From an uncultured Eubacteriales bacterium (GTDB taxonomy: Bacteria; Bacillota; Clostridia; Oscillospirales; CAG-272), in NCBI GenBank assembly GCA_934796165.1, contig CAKVOU010000001.1:78752-142751 (forward strand): a DNA stretch of 64,000 nucleotides, read 5' to 3'. Numbering within the stretch: the stretch's first letter is position 1; each line of letters starts with the position of its first letter. The translations under genes and the position numbers were made by a program. The notes beneath the pieces were generated by a model. It did not search any database, had not been told where the DNA came from, and was given only the letters and a program-made list of their open reading frames with translations. Positions 908 through 10,681 of the stretch are shown here, piece by piece.

Positions 908-2947
908 ATGGCGAAGAAACTGATCGTTGCGCAGCACGCCGGGTTCTGCTTCGGTGTCAGGCGTGCAACCGAATGTCTCGGCGCGAAGCTCTCCGACCGG
1001 GTGCCGGGGGAACGTCTGTATACCCTCGGTCACCTCATTCACAATGAACTTTATAACGCGGAGCTGGAACAAAAGGGCGTGCGGAGCGTCGTACCTGATG
1101 AGATTCCCGCGCTTGCCCGCAGTGCGACCGACGCGTCGCCGGTAACGCTCTTCATCCGCGCACACGGGATTCCCAAAGAGACCGAAGCGCTCCTTGCCCG
1201 CCTTGCCGCGGAATACCCCGCGTTTCACTACGAGGACTGTACCTGTCCGTATGTGAAAAAGATTCAGAACATTGCCGAAAAATACGACGACGGAGAACAT
1301 CTGCTCCTTCTGTTCGGCGCGGCGGAGCATCCGGAGGTCGTCGGGATTCTCAGTCATTTTTCGGGAGAAGCGTATGTGTTTCCGGATGCGGAGACCTTCC
1401 GCCGGGCGCTTTCTGACGGCTTGATTGTAAATTTGCACAAAAAATCACCAATTGCAGCGGCGCAAACGACCTTTCATTTGTCGGAATGGCAAAATTGTCA
1501 GGAAATTCTCAAAAAAGTCTGTACAAGCGCAGTTATTTTTGATACAATATGTAAGGTTACGGATGAGCGGCAGTCCGAGGCGAAACGCCTTGCGACGGCG
1601 TGTGACTCAATGATCGTGATCGGCGGCAGGGAAAGCTCCAACACAGCCAAACTGTATGCCGTCTGCCGCGAGCATTGCGCACATACCGTGTGGGTCGTTT
1701 CTGCGGAAGAACTTGCCGGAATCCATCCGTTGCTCCCCGGAGTCACCGGGATCGTTGCCGGAGCCTCAACCCCCGGCAGCATAATTGAGGAGGTAGTCAA
1801 AACCATGAGCGAAGCAGAAAACTTCGAAGCAATGCTGGAAAAATCAATCAAAACTTTAAATACAGGAGATACAGTTACCGGACTCGTAACACGCGTTACC
1901 GATCAAGAGTTGCAGCTTGACCTCGGCACCAAGGTTACCGGCGTGATCAAGGCTGAGCAGATCACCGATGACCCGTCCGCTAAGCTGACTTCCATGTTTA
2001 AGGTCGGCGATGAGGTCGAGGCATTCGTCATCCGTGTCAGTGACGTCGAGGGCGTCGCAGAGCTTTCCAAGAAGCGCGTTGATGCAGACAAGAACATCAA
2101 GACGCTGGTGGAAGCAGAAGAGAACAAGGAAGTCGTTGAAGGCAAGGTCACTGAGGTGGTCAAGGGCGGCGTTGTCGCCACTGTCAACTCCAACCGCGTG
2201 TTTATTCCCGCGGCTCTGACCGGTGTCCCGAAGGACGGCGACCTGAACACGCTTGTCGGCACGACCGTCAAGCTCCGGATCATTGAGGTCAAGGGCAAGA
2301 ACATCAAGGGCTCTATCCGTTCTGTTCTCCGCGAGGAGAAGAAGGCGCAGGAGGCAGCGTTCTGGGCAAACATCGAAGTCGGTAAGAAGTATACCGGTAA
2401 GGTCAGAAGCATGACCGATTACGGTGCATTTGTTGATCTCGGCGGTGTGGACGGCATGATTCACAGGACCGAACTGTCCTGGAAACACATCAAGTCTCCC
2501 GCGGACGTGCTGAAGATCGGCGAAGAGGTCACCGTGTTCGTCAAGAGCTTTGACCCCGAGAAGAAGAGAATTTCTCTCGGCTACAAGACCGAAGAATCCG
2601 AACCCTGGTACGTCTTCACCCATACCTATCAGGTGGGCGACGTTGCCGCTGTCAAGATCGTCAATATGATGCCTTTCGGCGCATTTGCTGAGATCGTTGA
2701 TGGCGTGGACGGACTGATTCACATTTCTCAGATCGCGCAGACCCGGATCGGCAAGCCGTCCGACGTTCTGGAGATCGGTCAGATCGTTGATGCTAAGATC
2801 ATCGACATCGACAACGAGAAGAAGAAGGTCAGCCTTTCCATCCGTGCGCTTCTCGACGAGGCGCAGGCAGCAGAGGAAGCCGCTCCCGCAGAGGACGTTC
2901 CCGCTGAGGAAACTGCCGAGGAAGCTCCCGCTTCTGACGAGCAGTAA
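908..2947 (+). CDS. ispH: bifunctional 4-hydroxy-3-methylbut-2-enyl diphosphate reductase / S1 RNA-binding repeat protein
   Basis: 679 aa. The N-terminal ~280 aa are LytB/IspH-like (AQHAGFCFGVRRA...IVIGGRESSNT). The C-terminal half carries four S1-type repeats (e.g. GKVRSMTDYGAFVDLGGVDGMIH, VKIVNMMPFGAFAEIVDGVDGLIHISQ). Confidence 0.9.
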   Translation: MAKKLIVAQHAGFCFGVRRATECLGAKLSDRVPGERLYTLGHLIHNELYNAELEQKGVRSVVPDEIPALARSATDASPVTLFIRAHGIPKETEALLARLAAEYPAFHYEDCTCPYVKKIQNIAEKYDDGEHLLLLFGAAEHPEVVGILSHFSGEAYVFPDAETFRRALSDGLIVNLHKKSPIAAAQTTFHLSEWQNCQEILKKVCTSAVIFDTICKVTDERQSEAKRLATACDSMIVIGGRESSNTAKLYAVCREHCAHTVWVVSAEELAGIHPLLPGVTGIVAGASTPGSIIEEVVKTMSEAENFEAMLEKSIKTLNTGDTVTGLVTRVTDQELQLDLGTKVTGVIKAEQITDDPSAKLTSMFKVGDEVEAFVIRVSDVEGVAELSKKRVDADKNIKTLVEAEENKEVVEGKVTEVVKGGVVATVNSNRVFIPAALTGVPKDGDLNTLVGTTVKLRIIEVKGKNIKGSIRSVLREEKKAQEAAFWANIEVGKKYTGKVRSMTDYGAFVDLGGVDGMIHRTELSWKHIKSPADVLKIGEEVTVFVKSFDPEKKRISLGYKTEESEPWYVFTHTYQVGDVAAVKIVNMMPFGAFAEIVDGVDGLIHISQIAQTRIGKPSDVLEIGQIVDAKIIDIDNEKKKVSLSIRALLDEAQAAEEAAPAEDVPAEETAEEAPASDEQ

Positions 2948-3706: not shown

Positions 3707-4183
3707 ATGGCGGAAAAGAAACAGGACGGCAAGATCATCGCGGAAAACCGCAAGGCATGGCACGATTATTTTGTGGACGAACGCTTTGAAGCCGGGATCG
3801 CACTTTTCGGAACCGAGGTCAAGAGTCTTCGCAAGGGGGCGGTCAATCTCAAGGACTCCTACTGCGAGATCCGGAACGGCGAAATTTTCGCGGTCGGCGT
3901 GCATATCAGCCCGTTCGAGCAGGGAAACATCTTCAATAAGAACCCTCTGCGCGACCGGAAGCTGCTCATGCACCGGCGGGAAATCATGAAGCTGAACGGT
4001 CAGGTATCCCAGAAGGGGCTGACGCTGGTTCCGCTCAAGCTGTACTTTTCCGGTTCGCGCGTCAAAATGGAGATCGGACTTTGCCGCGGCAAAAAGCTGT
4101 ATGACAAGCGGGATGCCGCCGCGGAGCGCGATGCAAACCGTTCGATCGACCGTCATATGAAGGACAGCCGTTACGAGGACTGA
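3707..4183 (+). CDS. smpB: SsrA-binding protein
   Basis: 158 aa, [32 protein letters not shown]..., full-length SmpB-like. Immediately upstream of tmRNA. Confidence 0.95.
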
Positions 4184-4197
4184 CACAATTCAGATAA

Positions 4198-4570
4198 GGG
4201 GACGTAAAGGTTTCGACGGGGATTCTGAGGCATGATAAGCGTGGCAGGCCGGGCAATCCTGTAAAAGGCCCAACTTTTAAACAATAAACGACAACAATAC
4301 TGTTGCAATGGCTGCCTGAGAGGGCAGTGCCGTAGGACTGCGGTCCTACCCGGTCAGCCGATGAGTATCGCGGCTTCGGATTGACCGTCAATGAGCGATG
4401 CACGTGCACCGGCGGTTCGCACTTGAACCGGTCATGCAGAAAAGCGCTACCGAAGAGGTGAGCCTGTCATCCGGCGCTCCTCCGAGGGAAATCTAAAAGA
4501 ATGACTGCCCACGAAGAAAGTTGTGTCAAGGGATTTTCGGACAGGGGTTCGACTCCCCTCGTCTCCACCA
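4198..4570 (+). ncRNA. ssrA: transfer-messenger RNA (tmRNA)
   Basis: 5' GGGGACGTAAAGGTTTCGACGGGG and 3' GGACAGGGGTTCGACTCCCCTCGTCTCCACCA (tRNA-Ala-like acceptor/T-arm with CCA). Internal tag frame reads ...N-D-N-N-T-V-A-M-A-A-stop (TGA 4317-4319). Lies 14 nt after smpB. Confidence 0.9.
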
Positions 4571-4571
4571 A

Positions 4572-4612
4572 GCACAAACAGCCCGGCTTTATGCCGGGCT
4601 GTTTGTGCTTCT
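4572..4612 (+). terminator. tmRNA terminator hairpin
   Basis: Perfect 16-bp stem GCACAAACAGCCCGGC / GCCGGGCTGTTTGTGC with loop TTTAT, followed by TTCTT. Confidence 0.7.
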
Positions 4613-4857
4613 TGGATAGATGGAGGGAGTCGAACGGGTCGGAAGTGAATGACAGCCCGGTGGGCGGTCAAAGCCGACCCTGCGGGGGCCCGCAGGCGAG
4701 AACGACTCCCTGAACGGATTTACCCGGCTTTATGCCGGGCTGTTTGTGCTTTTTGGATAGATGGAGGGAGTCGAACGGGTCGGAAGTGAATGACAGCCCG
4801 GTGGGCGGTCAGAGCCGACCCTGACCGAGCCCGCAGGCGAGAACGATTCCCCGAACC
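4582..4857. repeat. tandem direct duplication (2 x ~141 bp) of the ssrA-distal flank
   Basis: Copy 1 is 4582-4722 and copy 2 is 4723-~4857. Both start inside the terminator hairpin (CCCGGCTTTATGCCGGGCTGTTTGTGCTT) and continue through GGATAGATGGAGGGAGTCGAACGGGTCGGAAGTGAATGACAGCCCGGTGGGCGGTCA(A/G)AGCCGACCCTG. Only a few substitutions separate the copies. Confidence 0.9.
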
Positions 4858-4984
4858 GCAAGTTATGTTTTTACGAGCAATCTGAGTAAAAATGTGCGTA
4901 ACTTTTTAAATAACAATCCCATGTGGAATCTATAGAATATGTAACTAGGAATTTAACTATTTAATAATATTTTGATTGAAAAGG

Positions 4985-5013
4985 TTGACAACCAATTCCA
5001 ACAGTGATATAAT
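4985..5013 (+). promoter_or_regulatory. consensus sigma-A promoter of the islet
   Basis: TTGACA (4985-4990), exactly 17-nt spacer, TATAAT (5008-5013). Confidence 0.65.
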
Positions 5014-5095
5014 ACATTTGATCGTTTCTCCTACGTTTTTTGGGGTTACCACTTACCTTATAGGAAGTTAAGGTCCCTTGTAGGAGGTTCCTACC

Positions 5096-5503
5096 ATGAA
5101 GAGTTGGAACAAGAGAAACGGTCAAAGAGCTACCACAAAGCGTCCTGGAACGAAAGAGTATCACGATGACTTTGTCAATCGGGGCAACCAGTTCTTCCAA
5201 AAGAAGACCAAAGCTGGCTGTACGAATTGCGGATCATCGAATGTTCGTGCTACGGGAGGAGATGGACGTCTGTTTGTCTTCTGTGCTAACTGTGGTAAGC
5301 AACTGAAGGTGATAAATACCAAACCAACACCAGTTGGTAATTGGTCGAAAAAAACCATCTTCCGTTCACGAGCGGGCTTATGCCTCTTGTGCGGAGGAGG
5401 TAGCTTCACCGGACAGTTGCACAGTGACCTTTCGCAGAAGCGGTATGCGCTTTCGCTCACATGTTGCCGCTGTGGGAGATCCTGTAATTGGCACAATTTC
5501 TGA
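5096..5503 (+). CDS. hypothetical small basic protein with two CxxC...CxxC zinc-ribbon motifs
   Basis: 135 aa. AGGAGG (5082-5087) lies 8 nt before the ATG. Motifs are CTNCG-x19-CANCG and CLLCG-x23-CCRCG. Promoter upstream and hairpin+T-run downstream. No family recognised by eye. Confidence 0.6.
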   Translation: MKSWNKRNGQRATTKRPGTKEYHDDFVNRGNQFFQKKTKAGCTNCGSSNVRATGGDGRLFVFCANCGKQLKVINTKPTPVGNWSKKTIFRSRAGLCLLCGGGSFTGQLHSDLSQKRYALSLTCCRCGRSCNWHNF

Positions 5504-5515
5504 CGTGAAAGCGTC

Positions 5516-5537
5516 AGAGGGCGTGCCCTCTTTTTTA
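5516..5537 (+). terminator. short intrinsic terminator/attenuator between islet ORF1 and ORF2
   Basis: (A)GAGGG-cgtg-CCCTC(T) stem followed by TTTTTT, preceded by a second small hairpin TGACG-tgaaag-CGTCA that overlaps the stop codon. Confidence 0.5.
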
Positions 5538-5572
5538 TATAAAAAATAATAAAATTGAAGTAGGAGAAAAAT

Positions 5573-7510
5573 ATGGGATTTGAAGAATCAATTAACAACT
5601 TGAAAAATCAATTAAGTAAAACGAATTCCTTCCAAGCAAAGTCTATATTGTTGAGAGATTTTCTGTGCAACAATAAATGTTTTGAAAAAAAACACTATTA
5701 TAGCGAAGAGGAGAAAAATGACCCGGTTATTCTGGCAGTCAAGAAAAATTATGGACTTAACGACATTTGTTATGAAACTTGCTTTGCCTTAAAGACTTGT
5801 TATTTTGAGGGGGAATTGGTTAAACCGGGTAACGTAAAAACGATGTATGAACATGTTTTAACCGGCATACAAGAAGGAAAAATTCAACTGGATGTGGATG
5901 TAAAATATTTTTGCGATTTGTATTTAGAGTTGGTTGATGCACTTTTCCCTCATGGGGGCGGAGATAACATGGAGGTCTATAAAGATCAGTTTAGCGATTT
6001 TGATATTGATAAAACAAAGTTAGACTCAGAAGAGTACCCAAGTTTGCTGTGCTATAAACATTATCGGAAGGATCTTTTAATATCTCTTATTTGTTTTTTG
6101 CTAAATCAAAGGAATAAAGAATCATTCCATTTAGCTATCAATTATTTTGAATTGTACGGTAAAAAATATCAAATTAATAATGTGACATTTATCAATGCTT
6201 TTTGGGGGCCTTTTAGAAAAAAAGATATAATAGATGAAGATTTTAGAAAAAAAGATGAACTAGACATAATTGAATTTAAAAGATTTCTTCAGAAAATCGA
6301 TGAGCGGGACTTAATACTATTTTTAAAATTGTTTGAAGCCGAAAGTTTAGAAAGTGCCAGCTCAATCCGGTGGGAGCAATTTGTTAAAGAGTCTATCGAG
6401 TTTCAGAACGAGTTGAAAATCGATAAAGAGAATTCGGAAGGTTTCTTTGTGATACCAACACCAGATTTAGATGTTAAGGAAATTGAACATAACATTAATA
6501 ATTTATTGAGTGCTGATCTCAAAACGATTGAAAACGATAATTACCATGAAATGTATAAATTCTACCAAGATCTGTGGGCTTTTTATGGTATATTCTCCTG
6601 GGTTAGAATTTCAAATAAGACAAAATATTTTTTGTCTCTTTTGATAAGGGATTATCCGGAACTATACAGGAAGGAATCTTATAATACTAGTTCGGATCCT
6701 AATACATATAGTTCGAGTCTTTATAAAATGACTATTACTATGATTGACGAAAGATTGGACGACATCGACAAAAAAAGAACTGAAAAATTGTTAGAAGAAA
6801 TGAATAGTATTGAAAAGGAGGAAATAGAAAGGTACTGTAAAAGTTTTTTTGCAACAATACAAGTCGGAGATAAGATCGAAAAATTGGATGAGGCTAGTGT
6901 AAATAAATTATACACTAAGTTTTCGGGTATGAAGGGCGGCGAAGATTTAGTTAAACTCATTGCCGGTGCACAAAAATTTATTGAACCTTACGAAAAAATT
7001 GATCAAACATTAGCCGGCGATTTTACGAAACTGATTGTAACACAAGTCAAGGTGATTGAGCGTTACTTAAAATCTGTTATTATTTCCAATATGACGGGTG
7101 AAAAAATCTTGTCAAAATACAATTTCAAACAAGCATACGACTCAAACCTAAAAAGCGAATCAAAAACACCTTTTATAATTATTGGAGAAGGAATGACTTG
7201 GGAGAATTTATCGCGGCAAAATAAGGCTGGAATAACAAATAGTATTTCTATTGAATTGGCGACTGCATCCTATATCATTCAACAAAATATGGATAAGGTA
7301 AAGGACAAAAACGCGAAAGAGGAGGACTTCAAAGCGTTTTTTGATGTGCAAAAGGAGTATGATAAAAGAATTCGTAGTTTCTTATATTGGAAAGATGATG
7401 TGCGCAACGGTTATTTCCACTCTCACCCCATAAAAACGTTAGGAGAGGCTTTGGCTATTCACAGGAAGACGGCATACTGCTTGGCAAAATGTATCGAATT
7501 ATTAAAGTGA
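5573..7510 (+). CDS. hypothetical 645-aa protein with C-terminal HEPN-like RNxxxH motif
   Basis: Long uninterrupted ORF in AT-rich DNA. AGGAG lies 6 nt before the ATG. C-terminus reads ...FLYWKDDVRNGYFHSHPIKTLGEALAIHRK... (R611-x4-H616). A second looser motif is QRNKESFH (R180-x5-H186). The function call is inference. Confidence 0.75.
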   Translation: MGFEESINNLKNQLSKTNSFQAKSILLRDFLCNNKCFEKKHYYSEEEKNDPVILAVKKNYGLNDICYETCFALKTCYFEGELVKPGNVKTMYEHVLTGIQEGKIQLDVDVKYFCDLYLELVDALFPHGGGDNMEVYKDQFSDFDIDKTKLDSEEYPSLLCYKHYRKDLLISLICFLLNQRNKESFHLAINYFELYGKKYQINNVTFINAFWGPFRKKDIIDEDFRKKDELDIIEFKRFLQKIDERDLILFLKLFEAESLESASSIRWEQFVKESIEFQNELKIDKENSEGFFVIPTPDLDVKEIEHNINNLLSADLKTIENDNYHEMYKFYQDLWAFYGIFSWVRISNKTKYFLSLLIRDYPELYRKESYNTSSDPNTYSSSLYKMTITMIDERLDDIDKKRTEKLLEEMNSIEKEEIERYCKSFFATIQVGDKIEKLDEASVNKLYTKFSGMKGGEDLVKLIAGAQKFIEPYEKIDQTLAGDFTKLIVTQVKVIERYLKSVIISNMTGEKILSKYNFKQAYDSNLKSESKTPFIIIGEGMTWENLSRQNKAGITNSISIELATASYIIQQNMDKVKDKNAKEEDFKAFFDVQKEYDKRIRSFLYWKDDVRNGYFHSHPIKTLGEALAIHRKTAYCLAKCIELLK

Positions 7511-7636
7511 CTGAGTCAAAAACTCTTTAATACCAGAATGTTTCCCTAGCCAATGGCGTCAAGGTTCCCATTGAAAATGCCCGGAAGAAAGCGTTGCATA
7601 TCCCCCGCAAATCCGTCCGGAAAACCGGCTCCGCTA

Positions 7637-7665
7637 TTTACTTTACCCGCCCGGTATGGTATACT
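7637..7665 (+). promoter_or_regulatory. possible promoter upstream of GH31 gene
   Basis: TTTACT, 17 nt, TATACT, with TATGG in the -16 region (tatggTATACT). Confidence 0.35.
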
Positions 7666-7765
7666 TTGAAGAGAAGATACGTTTTTGAAACGCTACAACC
7701 GCGTCCGGAACAAAGCACGGCGCAGGCGGCTGTGCCCCGGGAAATGAGGAAAGGCTGAGAATCAT

Positions 7766-10681
7766 ATGGCAATGGATGCAGGCAGGCAAAAGAAAAACGA
7801 CAGATCAATAAAGGAGCCTTGCCGGAAAGCGGTGAATTGCCGCAAGCCGGTCTCCGGGGCGCCGTTCCGGTGCAGTTATGAGATCGGCGACGTGCGGATT
7901 CAGCTCCTTTCTGATACGCTCGTCCGCATTGAAAACCGGAAAGATTCCGGGGACTTTGAAAACCGGGAAAGTTACATTGTGACCAACCGGTTGGACTGGC
8001 AGGGAACGGATGCACGGGTGCTCCGGACGGACGGTGGAACAAAGATCGTTGCTCCCGGTTATACGGTGATGATTCCGGACGGCGGGAAAGCGGAGCAGGT
8101 GACCGTCACAGATAAAAACGGGAAGCTCCTGTATTCGTGGGCGGGAACAACCGGCATGAACATTTATCTTCCAAGCCCCTCCGATGAGCTTGGCAGTTGG
8201 TACTTCACCGACTCGCCGCGGATCATTCCGTCCTGCGCGGGGTACAGTGACGAGGGACTGACAAATCTGCAGAATTGGGATTTCGGGAGCCGCGCGACCG
8301 ACATTTTTGTCTTTTTGCCGGGCGGCAGTTACGGGCGGTTCTTGGAGGATTTTGTGCGGCTGACGGGTAGGTCAGAGATGGTGGAGCTTCGCACGCTCGG
8401 TTTCTGGGATTCCCGTTACTATGCATACAGCGAAGAGACCGCCCTCCGTCAGATCCGGGACTACCGCGATCGGGGTTACGCCATTGATATGCTCGTAATC
8501 GACACCGACTGGAGGGAAAACAAGGGAACCCGCGGGATCGGCTACGACGTCAACACGGAACTGTTCCCGGACATGAAGCGCTTCCTCCGGGAATGTCATG
8601 AGGCGGGCGTCGGGGTCTGCTTCAACGATCACCCGGAGCCGGTCGCCGGTACGAAGAACGGCTTGGACGGCGCGGAGGTCCGTTACCGCAATGAGAAGCT
8701 CAAGGGACTGCTCTCAATCGGTCTGGATGTCTGGTGGTATGACCGGAACTGGGAAACCTCGCTGTTGTCCGCGGATCCCGGGATCTCCGTTTACGCGTTC
8801 GGAATGTACGCGTTTCACCGGATTACGGAGGATTATTACAGAAGGCTCGCCGGAGAGCAGGAGTATGCGCGCCGCGCAGTCATCATGGGAAACGTGGATG
8901 GCGTGATGCACGGGGAATGGAAGTACGCGTCGGATCTCTCCGCACACCGGTATCCGGTGCAATGGACAGGCGATATCTGCGGGGAAAGCGCGGATCTTGC
9001 CCAAGAAATCTGCACGGCAGTATTCGGTGGGGCGGAGGTCGGGATCCCGTATGTTTCCTCCGATCTCGGCGGACATCTGGGGACACCGACGGAGGCGCAA
9101 TACATCCGTTGGATTCAGTACGGAATGCTGACCCCGTTTTGCCGCGTACACTGTTGGGCACGGGACGGTTCCGGGCGGATGCCGTGGCTGTTCGGGGACC
9201 GGGCAGAAGCCGTGTTCAGGGCGTATCAGGGGATACGCTATCGCCTGTTGCCGCTGTTTTACCTGCTCGTGCGGGAAAACTATGACCGCGGACTGCCGCT
9301 GATGCGCCGGCTGGACATCCGGTATCCGCAGTACCCGGAGGCGTCGCGCAACGACGAATACCTGCTGGGAGACGGGATTCTTGTCGCTCCGCCGGCACAG
9401 TCGGAACCGGAGAATGACGGCGGGCAATGCAGGCGGGAGGTATTTTTCCCGGACGGCACGTGGATCGACGTCTTTTCCGGTAAGCGATACACGGGACCGT
9501 GCAGCGTTACGGTAAGTCACCCGCTTGACACGTCCCCGCTGTATGTGAGGGAAGGCTCCCTTGTTATACTGGCGCAGAACGGGATCAATACCGGGGACTC
9601 CGATTGGAGTCGGCTTTCGCTTGACGTTTACCCGTCCGCAAAGGATTCGGCGGTTACCCGGCTGTATGAGGATGATACCAAAACCGTCGCTTACCGGGAC
9701 GGACAATTCCGTACCACGGAGCTTTCCATGCATTGCGACAGAGAAAAGCGGACGGTAACCGTGCGTATCGACGCGGCAAACGGTACTTTTGAGGGAAAGC
9801 GGGCGTCTGATGTCCGTGAATGGAATATCCGTGTGCACAAGAATCCCGGATGGGGGAATCTCCGTCTTGTGACCGTCAACGGAGAGCGGATCCCCGCCGG
9901 CAACATCAGAAGGAGTGCCACAGATTCCTCGGTGGTTCCCTTTGCGTTTTGCGGTGCCGCGGCAGACGGCGATGTCTGGGAGTTCCCGGTAAGCGGGCGT
10001 GTGGATACGGAATACGAAATCGGGCTGTCCTTTGAAGCGGTTGCGGCTCCCGTGGAGAGTTGTGCGTATGACCGCCAGCCGATCGGATTTACCCTGACGA
10101 AAAACGGAGAGGTACAGTCGGTCGATCTTTCGCATGACGGCACGCTCGGCTGGGTTTCCTTCGGCGACGGCGGAACCGTTTCGGCGACGGGAGATACACA
10201 ACTGTTCTCTTACCCCCGTACCCGTGTCTGCGGAAGCGGCAGGGCAAAGGAGCAAAGCGTCGTTTCACTCAGTCCGATGGTCGGTTCGGTGCAGAAGATT
10301 CATTGTACTGCCGATGGGCAGTACAGCGGCAACGATGCGGTATACACGAATCCGTTCTTTGATCTGGAGATCAGAACCGTCGGAAGGCACGCACGGTATG
10401 TGCTGATCCTCGGCGGGGTGTTTTCCACGGCAAAGGTGACGGTCCGCGACCGCGGAGGAAATGTGAGAACGGTCTCTTTCGGCAGTCTTGCTGGCGAGTG
10501 GTCGCAAAAGGTTACGATTGAAGTGCCCGGGACGGAAGTGGGAACGCTGTACGTCCATATCGCCGTGGTCTGTGCGGGAAGAAGCGAAAGTCCGGAGTAT
10601 CCTGCCGCGACGCGCCTGAAGCATCCCGCCGCACTCAAGCTGTACGGTTGCTGCGCGGAGGACGCGGAACGGACTCTTTGA
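7766..10681 (+). CDS. glycoside hydrolase family 31 protein (alpha-glucosidase/alpha-xylosidase-like)
   Basis: 971 aa. GH31-type blocks: IDMLVIDTDWRENKG, GLDVWWYDRNWE, HRYPVQWTGDI, GIPYVSSDLGGH, YIRWIQYGMLTPFCRVH. Long C-terminal beta-rich extension. The exact start is uncertain. Confidence 0.85.
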   Translation: MAMDAGRQKKNDRSIKEPCRKAVNCRKPVSGAPFRCSYEIGDVRIQLLSDTLVRIENRKDSGDFENRESYIVTNRLDWQGTDARVLRTDGGTKIVAPGYTVMIPDGGKAEQVTVTDKNGKLLYSWAGTTGMNIYLPSPSDELGSWYFTDSPRIIPSCAGYSDEGLTNLQNWDFGSRATDIFVFLPGGSYGRFLEDFVRLTGRSEMVELRTLGFWDSRYYAYSEETALRQIRDYRDRGYAIDMLVIDTDWRENKGTRGIGYDVNTELFPDMKRFLRECHEAGVGVCFNDHPEPVAGTKNGLDGAEVRYRNEKLKGLLSIGLDVWWYDRNWETSLLSADPGISVYAFGMYAFHRITEDYYRRLAGEQEYARRAVIMGNVDGVMHGEWKYASDLSAHRYPVQWTGDICGESADLAQEICTAVFGGAEVGIPYVSSDLGGHLGTPTEAQYIRWIQYGMLTPFCRVHCWARDGSGRMPWLFGDRAEAVFRAYQGIRYRLLPLFYLLVRENYDRGLPLMRRLDIRYPQYPEASRNDEYLLGDGILVAPPAQSEPENDGGQCRREVFFPDGTWIDVFSGKRYTGPCSVTVSHPLDTSPLYVREGSLVILAQNGINTGDSDWSRLSLDVYPSAKDSAVTRLYEDDTKTVAYRDGQFRTTELSMHCDREKRTVTVRIDAANGTFEGKRASDVREWNIRVHKNPGWGNLRLVTVNGERIPAGNIRRSATDSSVVPFAFCGAAADGDVWEFPVSGRVDTEYEIGLSFEAVAAPVESCAYDRQPIGFTLTKNGEVQSVDLSHDGTLGWVSFGDGGTVSATGDTQLFSYPRTRVCGSGRAKEQSVVSLSPMVGSVQKIHCTADGQYSGNDAVYTNPFFDLEIRTVGRHARYVLILGGVFSTAKVTVRDRGGNVRTVSFGSLAGEWSQKVTIEVPGTEVGTLYVHIAVVCAGRSESPEYPAATRLKHPAALKLYGCCAEDAERTL

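Follow-up and report, generated by a model that had tools for sequence, protein, structure and literature searches.

A low-GC islet downstream of ssrA

The window analyzed here is the whole of a 64-kb stretch of DNA (64,000 nt) from an uncultured Eubacteriales bacterium, whose chromosome is of the Clostridia type with a G+C content (GC) of 57%. Directly after an intact ssrA gene, which encodes transfer-messenger RNA (tmRNA), and two tandem 134-nt units, the window contains a low-GC islet with two open reading frames, ORF1 and ORF2 (Table 1); genes for SpoIVA, SmpB, and IspH-S1 lie close by. The islet has a GC of 0.352, versus 0.560 in its left flank and 0.575 in its right flank, and is the lowest-GC 2.7-kb stretch in the window (minimum 0.354 at 4901; median 0.575). 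An earlier annotation made by eye, the sequence-only reading, had pointed to this drop from counts on single lines of sequence, 18/60 G+C at 6181-6240 and 39/60 at 8581-8640, and both counts are exact. GC falls from position 4857, directly after the second 134-nt unit, and is back up at ~7550-7600, about 50 bp past the ORF2 stop at 7510, which is where that reading had placed the end of the islet. It had placed the start right after a duplicated flank of ssrA. The position is correct, and the duplication is a tandem one that lies wholly to the left of the islet and is not an attL/attR pair.

ORF1 and ORF2 are the only plausible genes inside the islet, as had been claimed, and are preceded by the ribosome-binding sites (RBSs) AGGAGG and AGGAG, respectively. 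The promoter that had been recognized ahead of ORF1 matches TTGACA-17-TATAAT at every position. Neither the islet nor its surroundings contain an integrase, transposase, or cas gene, the stretch 4571-7765 being free of integrase ORFs, and no inverted repeats bracket the islet, all in line with the first description; nor is it bracketed by direct repeats. Scanning the islet and the 134-nt units against Rfam turned up no known RNA family. The islet is foreign in composition and was acquired horizontally.

Table 1. Positions of features in the window and arrangement of related genes at other loci.
Feature	Position or locus	Strand	Remarks
smpB	3707-4183		
tmRNA (ssrA) gene, intact	4198..4570	+	ARAGORN, tag peptide DNNTVAMAA; Rfam RF00023, 147.8 bits, full length
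Two tandem 134-nt units, left border of islet	4582-4715, 4723-4856	+	Direct repeat, 94% identical
Low-GC islet, strain-specific	4857..7560	.	GC 0.352; not after ssrA in strain L023
Sigma-70-type promoter TTGACA-17-TATAAT	4985..5013	+	12/12 match, extended TG
ORF1 leader, conserved	5020..5095	+	Conserved in 6 lineages; transcription start inferred
ORF1, 135 aa, two Cys4 zinc ribbons	5096..5503	+	22 homologs
Terminator-like hairpin and T-run between ORF1 and ORF2	5516..5531	+	Scan match AGAGGGCGTGCCCTCT, then TTTTTT
ORF2, 645 aa, all-alpha	5573..7510	+	28 remote relatives; AlphaFold2 pLDDT 74.7
Predicted HEPN domain, residues ~455-645	6935..7507	+	E496-x3-K500 at 7058-7072; R611-N612-x3-H616 at 7403-7420
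ORF1 directly upstream of ORF2, 57-69 nt gap	Window, L007, L009, L011/L012		
ORF1 divergently oriented to ORF2-family gene	L005		
ORF1 2.5 kb upstream of ORF2-family gene	L014		
ORF1 absent at ORF2-family locus	L013, L016, L028		
IetA-like AAA+ ATPase	L013 5266-6582	-	
IetA-like AAA+ ATPase	L014 8278-9411		
IetA-like AAA+ ATPase	L028 3684-4736		

The site next to ssrA differs between strains. Loci used for comparison are labeled L001 to L028, with L001 being the ENA record of the same strain as the window. Strain L023 is 96.5% identical to the window through ssrA and encodes an identical SmpB, and beyond ssrA it carries Cupin, Fer4, and Crp genes, none of which occur in the window. An identical SmpB is found in 38 blocks of the collection, and the contigs listed mostly stop ~50-415 nt past smpB; six of them from other samples (L018-L022, L024) end at this distance, within or just past ssrA. 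In this species, assemblies are systematically interrupted at ssrA, which fits a variable hotspot. We found no clean smpB-ssrA-GH31 empty site, since the closest GH31 homolog outside this strain is only ~60% identical and the exact SpoIVA sequence is found in this strain only; the alternative occupant in L023 was seen instead. With other genes at ssrA in L023 and no empty site found, the islet is therefore strain-specific cargo, and the comparison shows that ssrA is a hotspot whose content varies between strains of this species. The region is accordingly not one of conserved synteny. Placement at ssrA had been taken as a sign of acquisition. The placement itself is not accounted for by an integrase or by att duplication: an ssrA-targeting island or prophage would have a tyrosine or serine integrase by ssrA and would repeat the 3' end of ssrA directly at its far border, and neither is present here.

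ORF2 belongs to a divergent HEPN-like family

HEPN ribonucleases (RNases) are recurring effectors in bacterial immunity and toxin-antitoxin (TA) systems. ORF2 combines a variable N-terminal region of ~430 aa with a conserved C-terminal HEPN-like domain, in which the sequence-only reading had noticed a terminal RNxxxH motif (VRNGYFH, residues 610-616). An exhaustive HMMER search of 1.84 billion representatives returned at least 28 representative relatives of ORF2, with E values of 1e-45 to 3e-4 and residues ~330-645 as the common stretch, while a k-mer-indexed protein search found the identical protein only. Together with the 22 relatives of ORF1, this means that the label "orphan" first given to the module does not hold. 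In 2 alignments of the family, A2 (26 sequences) and A3 (24 sequences), identities are 18-43%. Eight columns are invariant in the family, D483, K493, E496, L499, K500, R611, N612, and H616, and these make up the family motifs GDFTxLVVxQIKxVERYLKE and VRNGYFHxHP.

HEPN domains are described as four-helix up-down bundles that have an Rx4-6H motif, its arginine directly followed by a polar residue (N/D/H), at the end of helix 3 or where the loop begins, a frequent Ex3[KR] motif in helix 2, and an insert between these helices (PMC3710099). The first motif is present in ORF2 as R611-N612-G-Y-F-H616, with a polar residue after the arginine, and is invariant in both A2 and A3. The second is E496-R-Y-L-K500, also invariant, in a predicted helix at residues 485-506. 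The AlphaFold2 (AF2) model of ORF2 is of moderate overall confidence by predicted local distance difference test (pLDDT), with C-terminal blocks mostly at 80-95. In this model the helix carrying E496 and K500 is followed by a 96-residue insert and a helix at 603-615 that ends with R611 and N612; H616 opens a loop, and a helix at 623-643 closes the domain. The placement of the motifs in this predicted layout agrees with the published description of HEPN domains (PMC3710099) and strengthens the original guess. Since the R, N, H, E, and K residues are invariant while the sequences are otherwise ~20% identical, we argue that they form an active site.

The only Pfam families that recur among ORF2-family members, weakly, are HEPN families. 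RnlA-toxin_DBD is hit by 4/23 members at 15-18 bits against a cut-off of 27 (best E 1e-3), with the matches confined to the Ex3K helix, and Abi_2 by 2 of the 23, likewise sub-threshold (best E 0.013). Searches of PDB sequences with full-length and C-terminal ORF2 profiles gave no HEPN match, and Foldseek comparison of the AF2 models of ORF1 and ORF2 with the PDB, and of ORF2 also with BFVD, gave nothing below E 0.02. From its motifs and their placement in the modeled helices, the C-terminal domain of ORF2 is predicted to have a HEPN fold.

ORF1 is a conserved tandem zinc-ribbon protein with a putative structured leader

ORF1 had been described as a basic protein with 2 zinc ribbons, and its composition agrees: the isoelectric point is 10.1, K+R number 24 versus 5 for D+E, and there are 4 CxxC pairs. 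The family is rare, with homologs 51-70% identical to ORF1. All 8 cysteines of the 4 pairs are invariant in the family (~22-23 homologs), and so is the basic N-terminal segment NGQRATVKRPGTKEY. Codon differences number 66-89 at the third position versus 11-45 at positions 1 and 2, and this dominance of third-position changes indicates purifying selection. The AF2 model has an overall pLDDT of 74.6, with 2 beta-hairpin ribbons at 87-93. Similarities to known proteins are weak and comprise the Pfam family DUF7351 below its cut-off, an L33-like ribbon in PDB sequences (E 0.018), and Rpb9-like double ribbons in a structure search (E 0.13, Foldseek versus PDB). Scanned with the ORF1 profile, JGI metagenomes yielded a single locus and IMG/VR none. 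A role of ORF1 in mobility was dismissed, as the protein is too small and has neither a catalytic motif nor terminal repeats.

Scans of ORF1 and ORF2 against Pfam, NCBIfam, PHROGs, and PADLOC returned nothing significant, and tblastn of both against phage and plasmid records gave no match. Across these resources and the PDB sequences, neither protein matches a characterized non-defense family; such matches would have spoken against the defense interpretation first offered.

In the public record, ORF1 is not called as a gene (L001 9524-9931), and the exact protein is missing from the protein collection; the family is probably under-counted in databases because of this. The ORF1 homolog in L009, a metagenome-assembled genome, is split by a frameshift. 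Contigs often stop right after ORF1.

Equally strong promoters are found upstream of the ORF1 homologs in L003, L005, L009, L011, and L027, and a conserved leader precedes ORF1 in these loci and in L007 as well. The sequence (GAT)CGTTTCnCC stands directly past the -10 box in the conserved leaders. The 5' segment of the leader, GAUCGUUUCUCC (UUUCUCC), is predicted to pair with the Shine-Dalgarno (SD) sequence around a central hairpin. In minimum free energy folds, the SD sequence GGAG pairs with leader nt 9-13 in 5/7 leaders (window, L005, L007, L009, and L011); the folds of the other 2, from L003 and L027, lack this pairing. The hairpin shows covariation, with ACC/GGT replaced by GCC/GGC and ACTT/AAGT by ACTG/CAGT, and the leader has no Rfam match. 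A short hairpin with a pyrimidine/T tract also follows the ORF1 stop in other loci. The conserved leader with its predicted SD pairing suggests that it is a translational control element for ORF1.

The two families are linked in other gut Clostridia

An ORF1 relative stands beside an ORF2 relative in 6/9 ORF2-family loci with readable flanks (Table 1), so that co-occurrence, which had been proposed as a check on the module, is frequent and not obligate. The hosts of the linked pair range from 25% to 57% GC, and the pair recurs in other gut Clostridia. L007, L009, and L011 cluster together in both the ORF1 and ORF2 families.

Several of these loci contain known anti-phage genes. Downstream of the pair in L011 are a PDC-M13-like gene, PDC-S18 (E 4e-131), and a type I restriction-modification (R-M) methyltransferase (E 1e-303). 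IetA-like AAA+ ATPases occur within 1 or 2 genes of the ORF2-family gene in L013, L014, and L028 and are absent from the window; the PADLOC IetA model matches those of L014 and L013 at E 1e-38 and 2e-24, and the L028 protein is 45% identical to that of L014. L028 has an N6 methyltransferase as well. In L005 (1982-4630, minus strand), the ORF2-family gene directly adjoins genes for a methyltransferase, RNA ligase, and kinase-like HD/AAA_33 protein, a set that resembles Pnkp/Hen1-type RNA repair.

ORF1 also moves by itself. Its promoter, leader, gene, and hairpin together make up a 541-nt cassette whose copies in L003 (7939-8479) and L027 (6888-7428) are 94% identical, while the genes flanking them are 78-79% identical, and therefore the cassette itself has been exchanged. 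The 1324-aa protein encoded upstream of ORF1 in L003 was considered as a partner and rejected, being a secreted surface protein outside the ORF2 family.

Where ORF1 is missing, a different small basic helical protein can be found by the ORF2-family gene, of 153 aa in L013 (1268-1729) and 168 aa in L016 (1694-2200, minus strand). The two share 37% identity, lack Cys clusters, and may take the place of ORF1 as partner. L013 also encodes, upstream of its intact ORF2-family gene, a 78-aa fragment (1774-2007, minus strand) that matches the C-terminal end of the ORF2-family profile (positions 499-544, E 7e-16); it probably derives from an earlier copy that has decayed to a pseudogene.

Comparison with known HEPN systems

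As predicted from motifs and models, the module would work most like RnlAB/LsoAB, RAZR, and HEC-08. RnlA-RnlB and LsoA-LsoB (RNase LS), which are TA systems with anti-T4 defense activity, share with ORF1-ORF2 a large multi-domain protein with a C-terminal HEPN RNase and action at the RNA level (both predicted in the case of ORF2), and a small separate partner. The N-terminal region of ORF2 is unrelated to that of RnlA, however, and the RnlA-toxin_DBD matches are sub-threshold. Pfam shows neither the RnlA N-terminal domains nor RnlB in the pair, and ORF1 is a tandem zinc ribbon and not RnlB-like.

Zinc ribbons and HEPN domains are joined in 2 validated defenses, RAZR (PMC13017515) and HEC-08 (bioRxiv 10.1101/2024.01.29.577857). 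RAZR, the ring-activated zinc-finger RNase, is an abortive-infection defense in which a divergent HEPN RNase comes with a zinc ribbon of the Cys4 type, a combination also predicted for the pair, and its zinc-finger domain recognizes the phage trigger (PMC13017515). RAZR is one short polypeptide with an N-terminal ribbon and a DUF4145 HEPN domain, whereas here there are 2 genes, no DUF4145, and an extra helical region of ~430 aa in ORF2. HEC-08 (Hma-embedded candidate 08) contains a HEPN domain and several zinc-ribbon-like domains, and the histidine of its Rx4-6H motif is essential (bioRxiv 10.1101/2024.01.29.577857). In HEC-08 one polypeptide carries both, the HEPN domain (DUF3644) at its N terminus and the ribbons at its C terminus, and 0/24 ORF2-family members match the HEC-08 model. 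The PADLOC HEC-08 model picks up 2/23 ORF1-family members at E ~2-3e-3, far below significance; for one member, P0018, the match (E 3e-3) covers positions 284-351 of 358, the C-terminal zinc-ribbon part. Because there is no DUF4145, no DUF3644, and no above-threshold RnlA match, and because the architecture is split and the N-terminal region unrelated, we place the pair outside RnlAB, RAZR, and HEC-08.

Two further groups are less similar. Abi2 (AbiD/AbiF) and other single-gene HEPN Abi proteins have an RNxxxH-type motif like that of ORF2 and are found in defense islands or R-M operons, but their architecture is different, they have no zinc-ribbon partner, and Abi_2 matches are sub-threshold. 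HEPN-MNT type VII TA systems pair a HEPN RNase toxin with an adjacent small neutralizing partner, but there the toxin is AMPylated by MNT, a nucleotidyltransferase, and ORF1 has no nucleotidyltransferase features in Pfam.

A candidate RNA-targeting conflict module

We lean toward interpreting the islet as a horizontally acquired, two-component RNA-targeting conflict module, in which ORF2 would be a HEPN RNase effector and ORF1 its zinc-ribbon partner. The recurrence of the pair in other gut Clostridia, where known anti-phage genes are often its neighbors, makes it probable that this is a variation on the HEPN toxin/defense theme that has yet to be described, with a novel zinc-ribbon partner. 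The idea of defense or TA-like horizontal cargo, put forward by the sequence-only reading, stands as far as foreign GC, strain variation, and defense neighbors elsewhere are concerned; the defense or toxicity itself is what these features would lead us to expect.

Under the conflict-module interpretation, ORF2 would act through a C-terminal, HEPN-type metal-independent endoribonuclease with the putative active site R611/N612/H616 and E496/K500. Its fast-evolving helical N-terminal region of ~430 residues probably senses a trigger or controls the activity. ORF1 would be made from the strong promoter via a self-sequestering leader, and with a terminator ahead of ORF2 that is presumed to be leaky, we expect that ORF1 would be in excess over ORF2. 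ORF1 would most likely be a regulator or antitoxin-like partner, or else a nucleic-acid- or target-binding adaptor, and would silence or direct the RNase. Phage infection or a shut-off of host expression, for example, would disturb this balance, whereupon the HEPN domain would cleave RNA and growth would stop. The overall logic would be one of abortive infection or TA; the arrangement of the operon fits a type II-like TA system, in which the partner would neutralize a growth-inhibiting toxin by binding it.

As a class, HEPN effectors are familiar, while both families are unannotated, and the split of ribbon and HEPN domain, the unusually conserved partner, and the leader are new. If the interpretation is correct, ORF2 would represent a HEPN family unseen by current Pfam, NCBIfam, PADLOC v2, and PHROGs profiles. 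The zinc ribbon and HEPN domain that are fused in RAZR and HEC-08 would here be divided between 2 genes, making the roles of ribbon and nuclease genetically separable, and the islet would provide a compact 2.5-kb module, testable and equipped with a promoter, from a group, the gut Clostridia, in which few defense systems have been tested.

Several observations weigh against this interpretation. Neither family matches any system model in PADLOC-DB v2.0.0, where scanning all members gave noise only (the sequence-only reading had not matched the pair to a named system either), and no ORF2-family member reaches the threshold of a curated HEPN profile. The window has no neighboring defense genes. 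The link between the genes is not obligate, as L013, L016, and L028 have ORF2-family genes without ORF1, and in L027 ORF1 stands alone between GDSL lipase and dehydrogenase genes. ORF1 also evolves far more slowly than ORF2 (identity range 58-83% versus 27-64%), which would be unusual for a co-evolving antitoxin. Finally, both families are rare and the sample is small.

A more specific version, which we offer tentatively, is that of a previously undescribed two-gene anti-phage system. In this version ORF1, as a ribosomal-protein-like tandem zinc ribbon, would bind a conserved RNA or ribonucleoprotein target and gate or direct the new HEPN RNase family, the hypervariable N-terminal half of ORF2 would sense infection, and the SD-sequestering leader would perhaps be controlled by ORF1 or by the RNase. 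The ORF1 cassette would be exchangeable and would pair with other cargo too.

Alternative explanations

The pair could instead be a selfish TA or addiction cassette, with ORF2 as toxin and ORF1 as antitoxin, that stabilizes itself or the hotspot and confers no defense against phage. The order of the genes fits such a cassette, with the small partner first, a strong promoter, and a terminator ahead of the toxin, and the solitary ORF1 of L027 would resemble an orphan antitoxin; the lack of defense neighbors in the window points in the same direction. We nevertheless consider this explanation unlikely, since several of the other loci lie amid R-M, PDC-S18, and IetA-like genes, typical type II toxins are much smaller than ORF2, whose fast-evolving N-terminal region suggests a sensor, and defense is also among the known activities of HEPN TA systems such as RnlAB.

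A second alternative, to which we give somewhat less credence, is that ORF1 is an independent gene for an autoregulated zinc-ribbon protein that binds DNA, or RNA or the ribosome. Its cassette would mark a cargo hotspot where ORF2-type genes merely land beside it, and the 2 proteins would do no joint work. This would explain why ORF1 is alone in L027 with promoter and leader intact, why its cassette is so much more similar between L003 and L027 than the flanks are, and why ORF1 is much more conserved than ORF2; the frequent ending of contigs just past ORF1 and the weak L33-like similarity (E 0.018) are also compatible with it. Chance landing is harder to reconcile with 6 independent adjacencies in hosts from 25% to 57% GC, the divergent arrangement in L005 included, with the tight spacing of 57-69 nt in 4 loci, and with the arrival of both genes together in one low-GC islet in the window.

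The C-terminal domain of ORF2 could also be a non-catalytic helical mimic of the HEPN motif, in which case the pair would have a non-nuclease function such as regulation or scaffolding. The lack of any significant HEPN profile or structural match and the moderate confidence of the AF2 model leave room for this, but it is improbable given that R, N, H, E, and K do not vary at all among sequences otherwise ~20% identical and that motif placement agrees with HEPN. Decay of a prophage or island once integrated at ssrA, which would have left the islet as an inert residue with genes no longer functional, is suggested by its position adjoining ssrA, the lack of an integrase, and the relic tmRNA fragments described below, and is very improbable given 2 intact ORFs with good RBSs and a perfect promoter, purifying selection on ORF1, and no phage or plasmid match for either protein or IMG/VR match for the ORF1 profile.

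The 134-nt units at the ssrA site

The 134-nt unit occurs in 2 copies in the whole window, and both are strongly structured (z -7.4 and -9.1). A hairpin like the ssrA terminator is found in each, as is a degenerate version of the tmRNA 3' end in inverted orientation (TGGATAGATGGAGGGAGTCGAAC). In strain L023 (1079-1275), a single unit is followed by an inverted, near-perfect fragment of the tmRNA 3' end (TGGTGGAGACGAGGGGAGTCGAACC). With no Rfam match, the unit may be either a relic of integrase activity or a novel small RNA.

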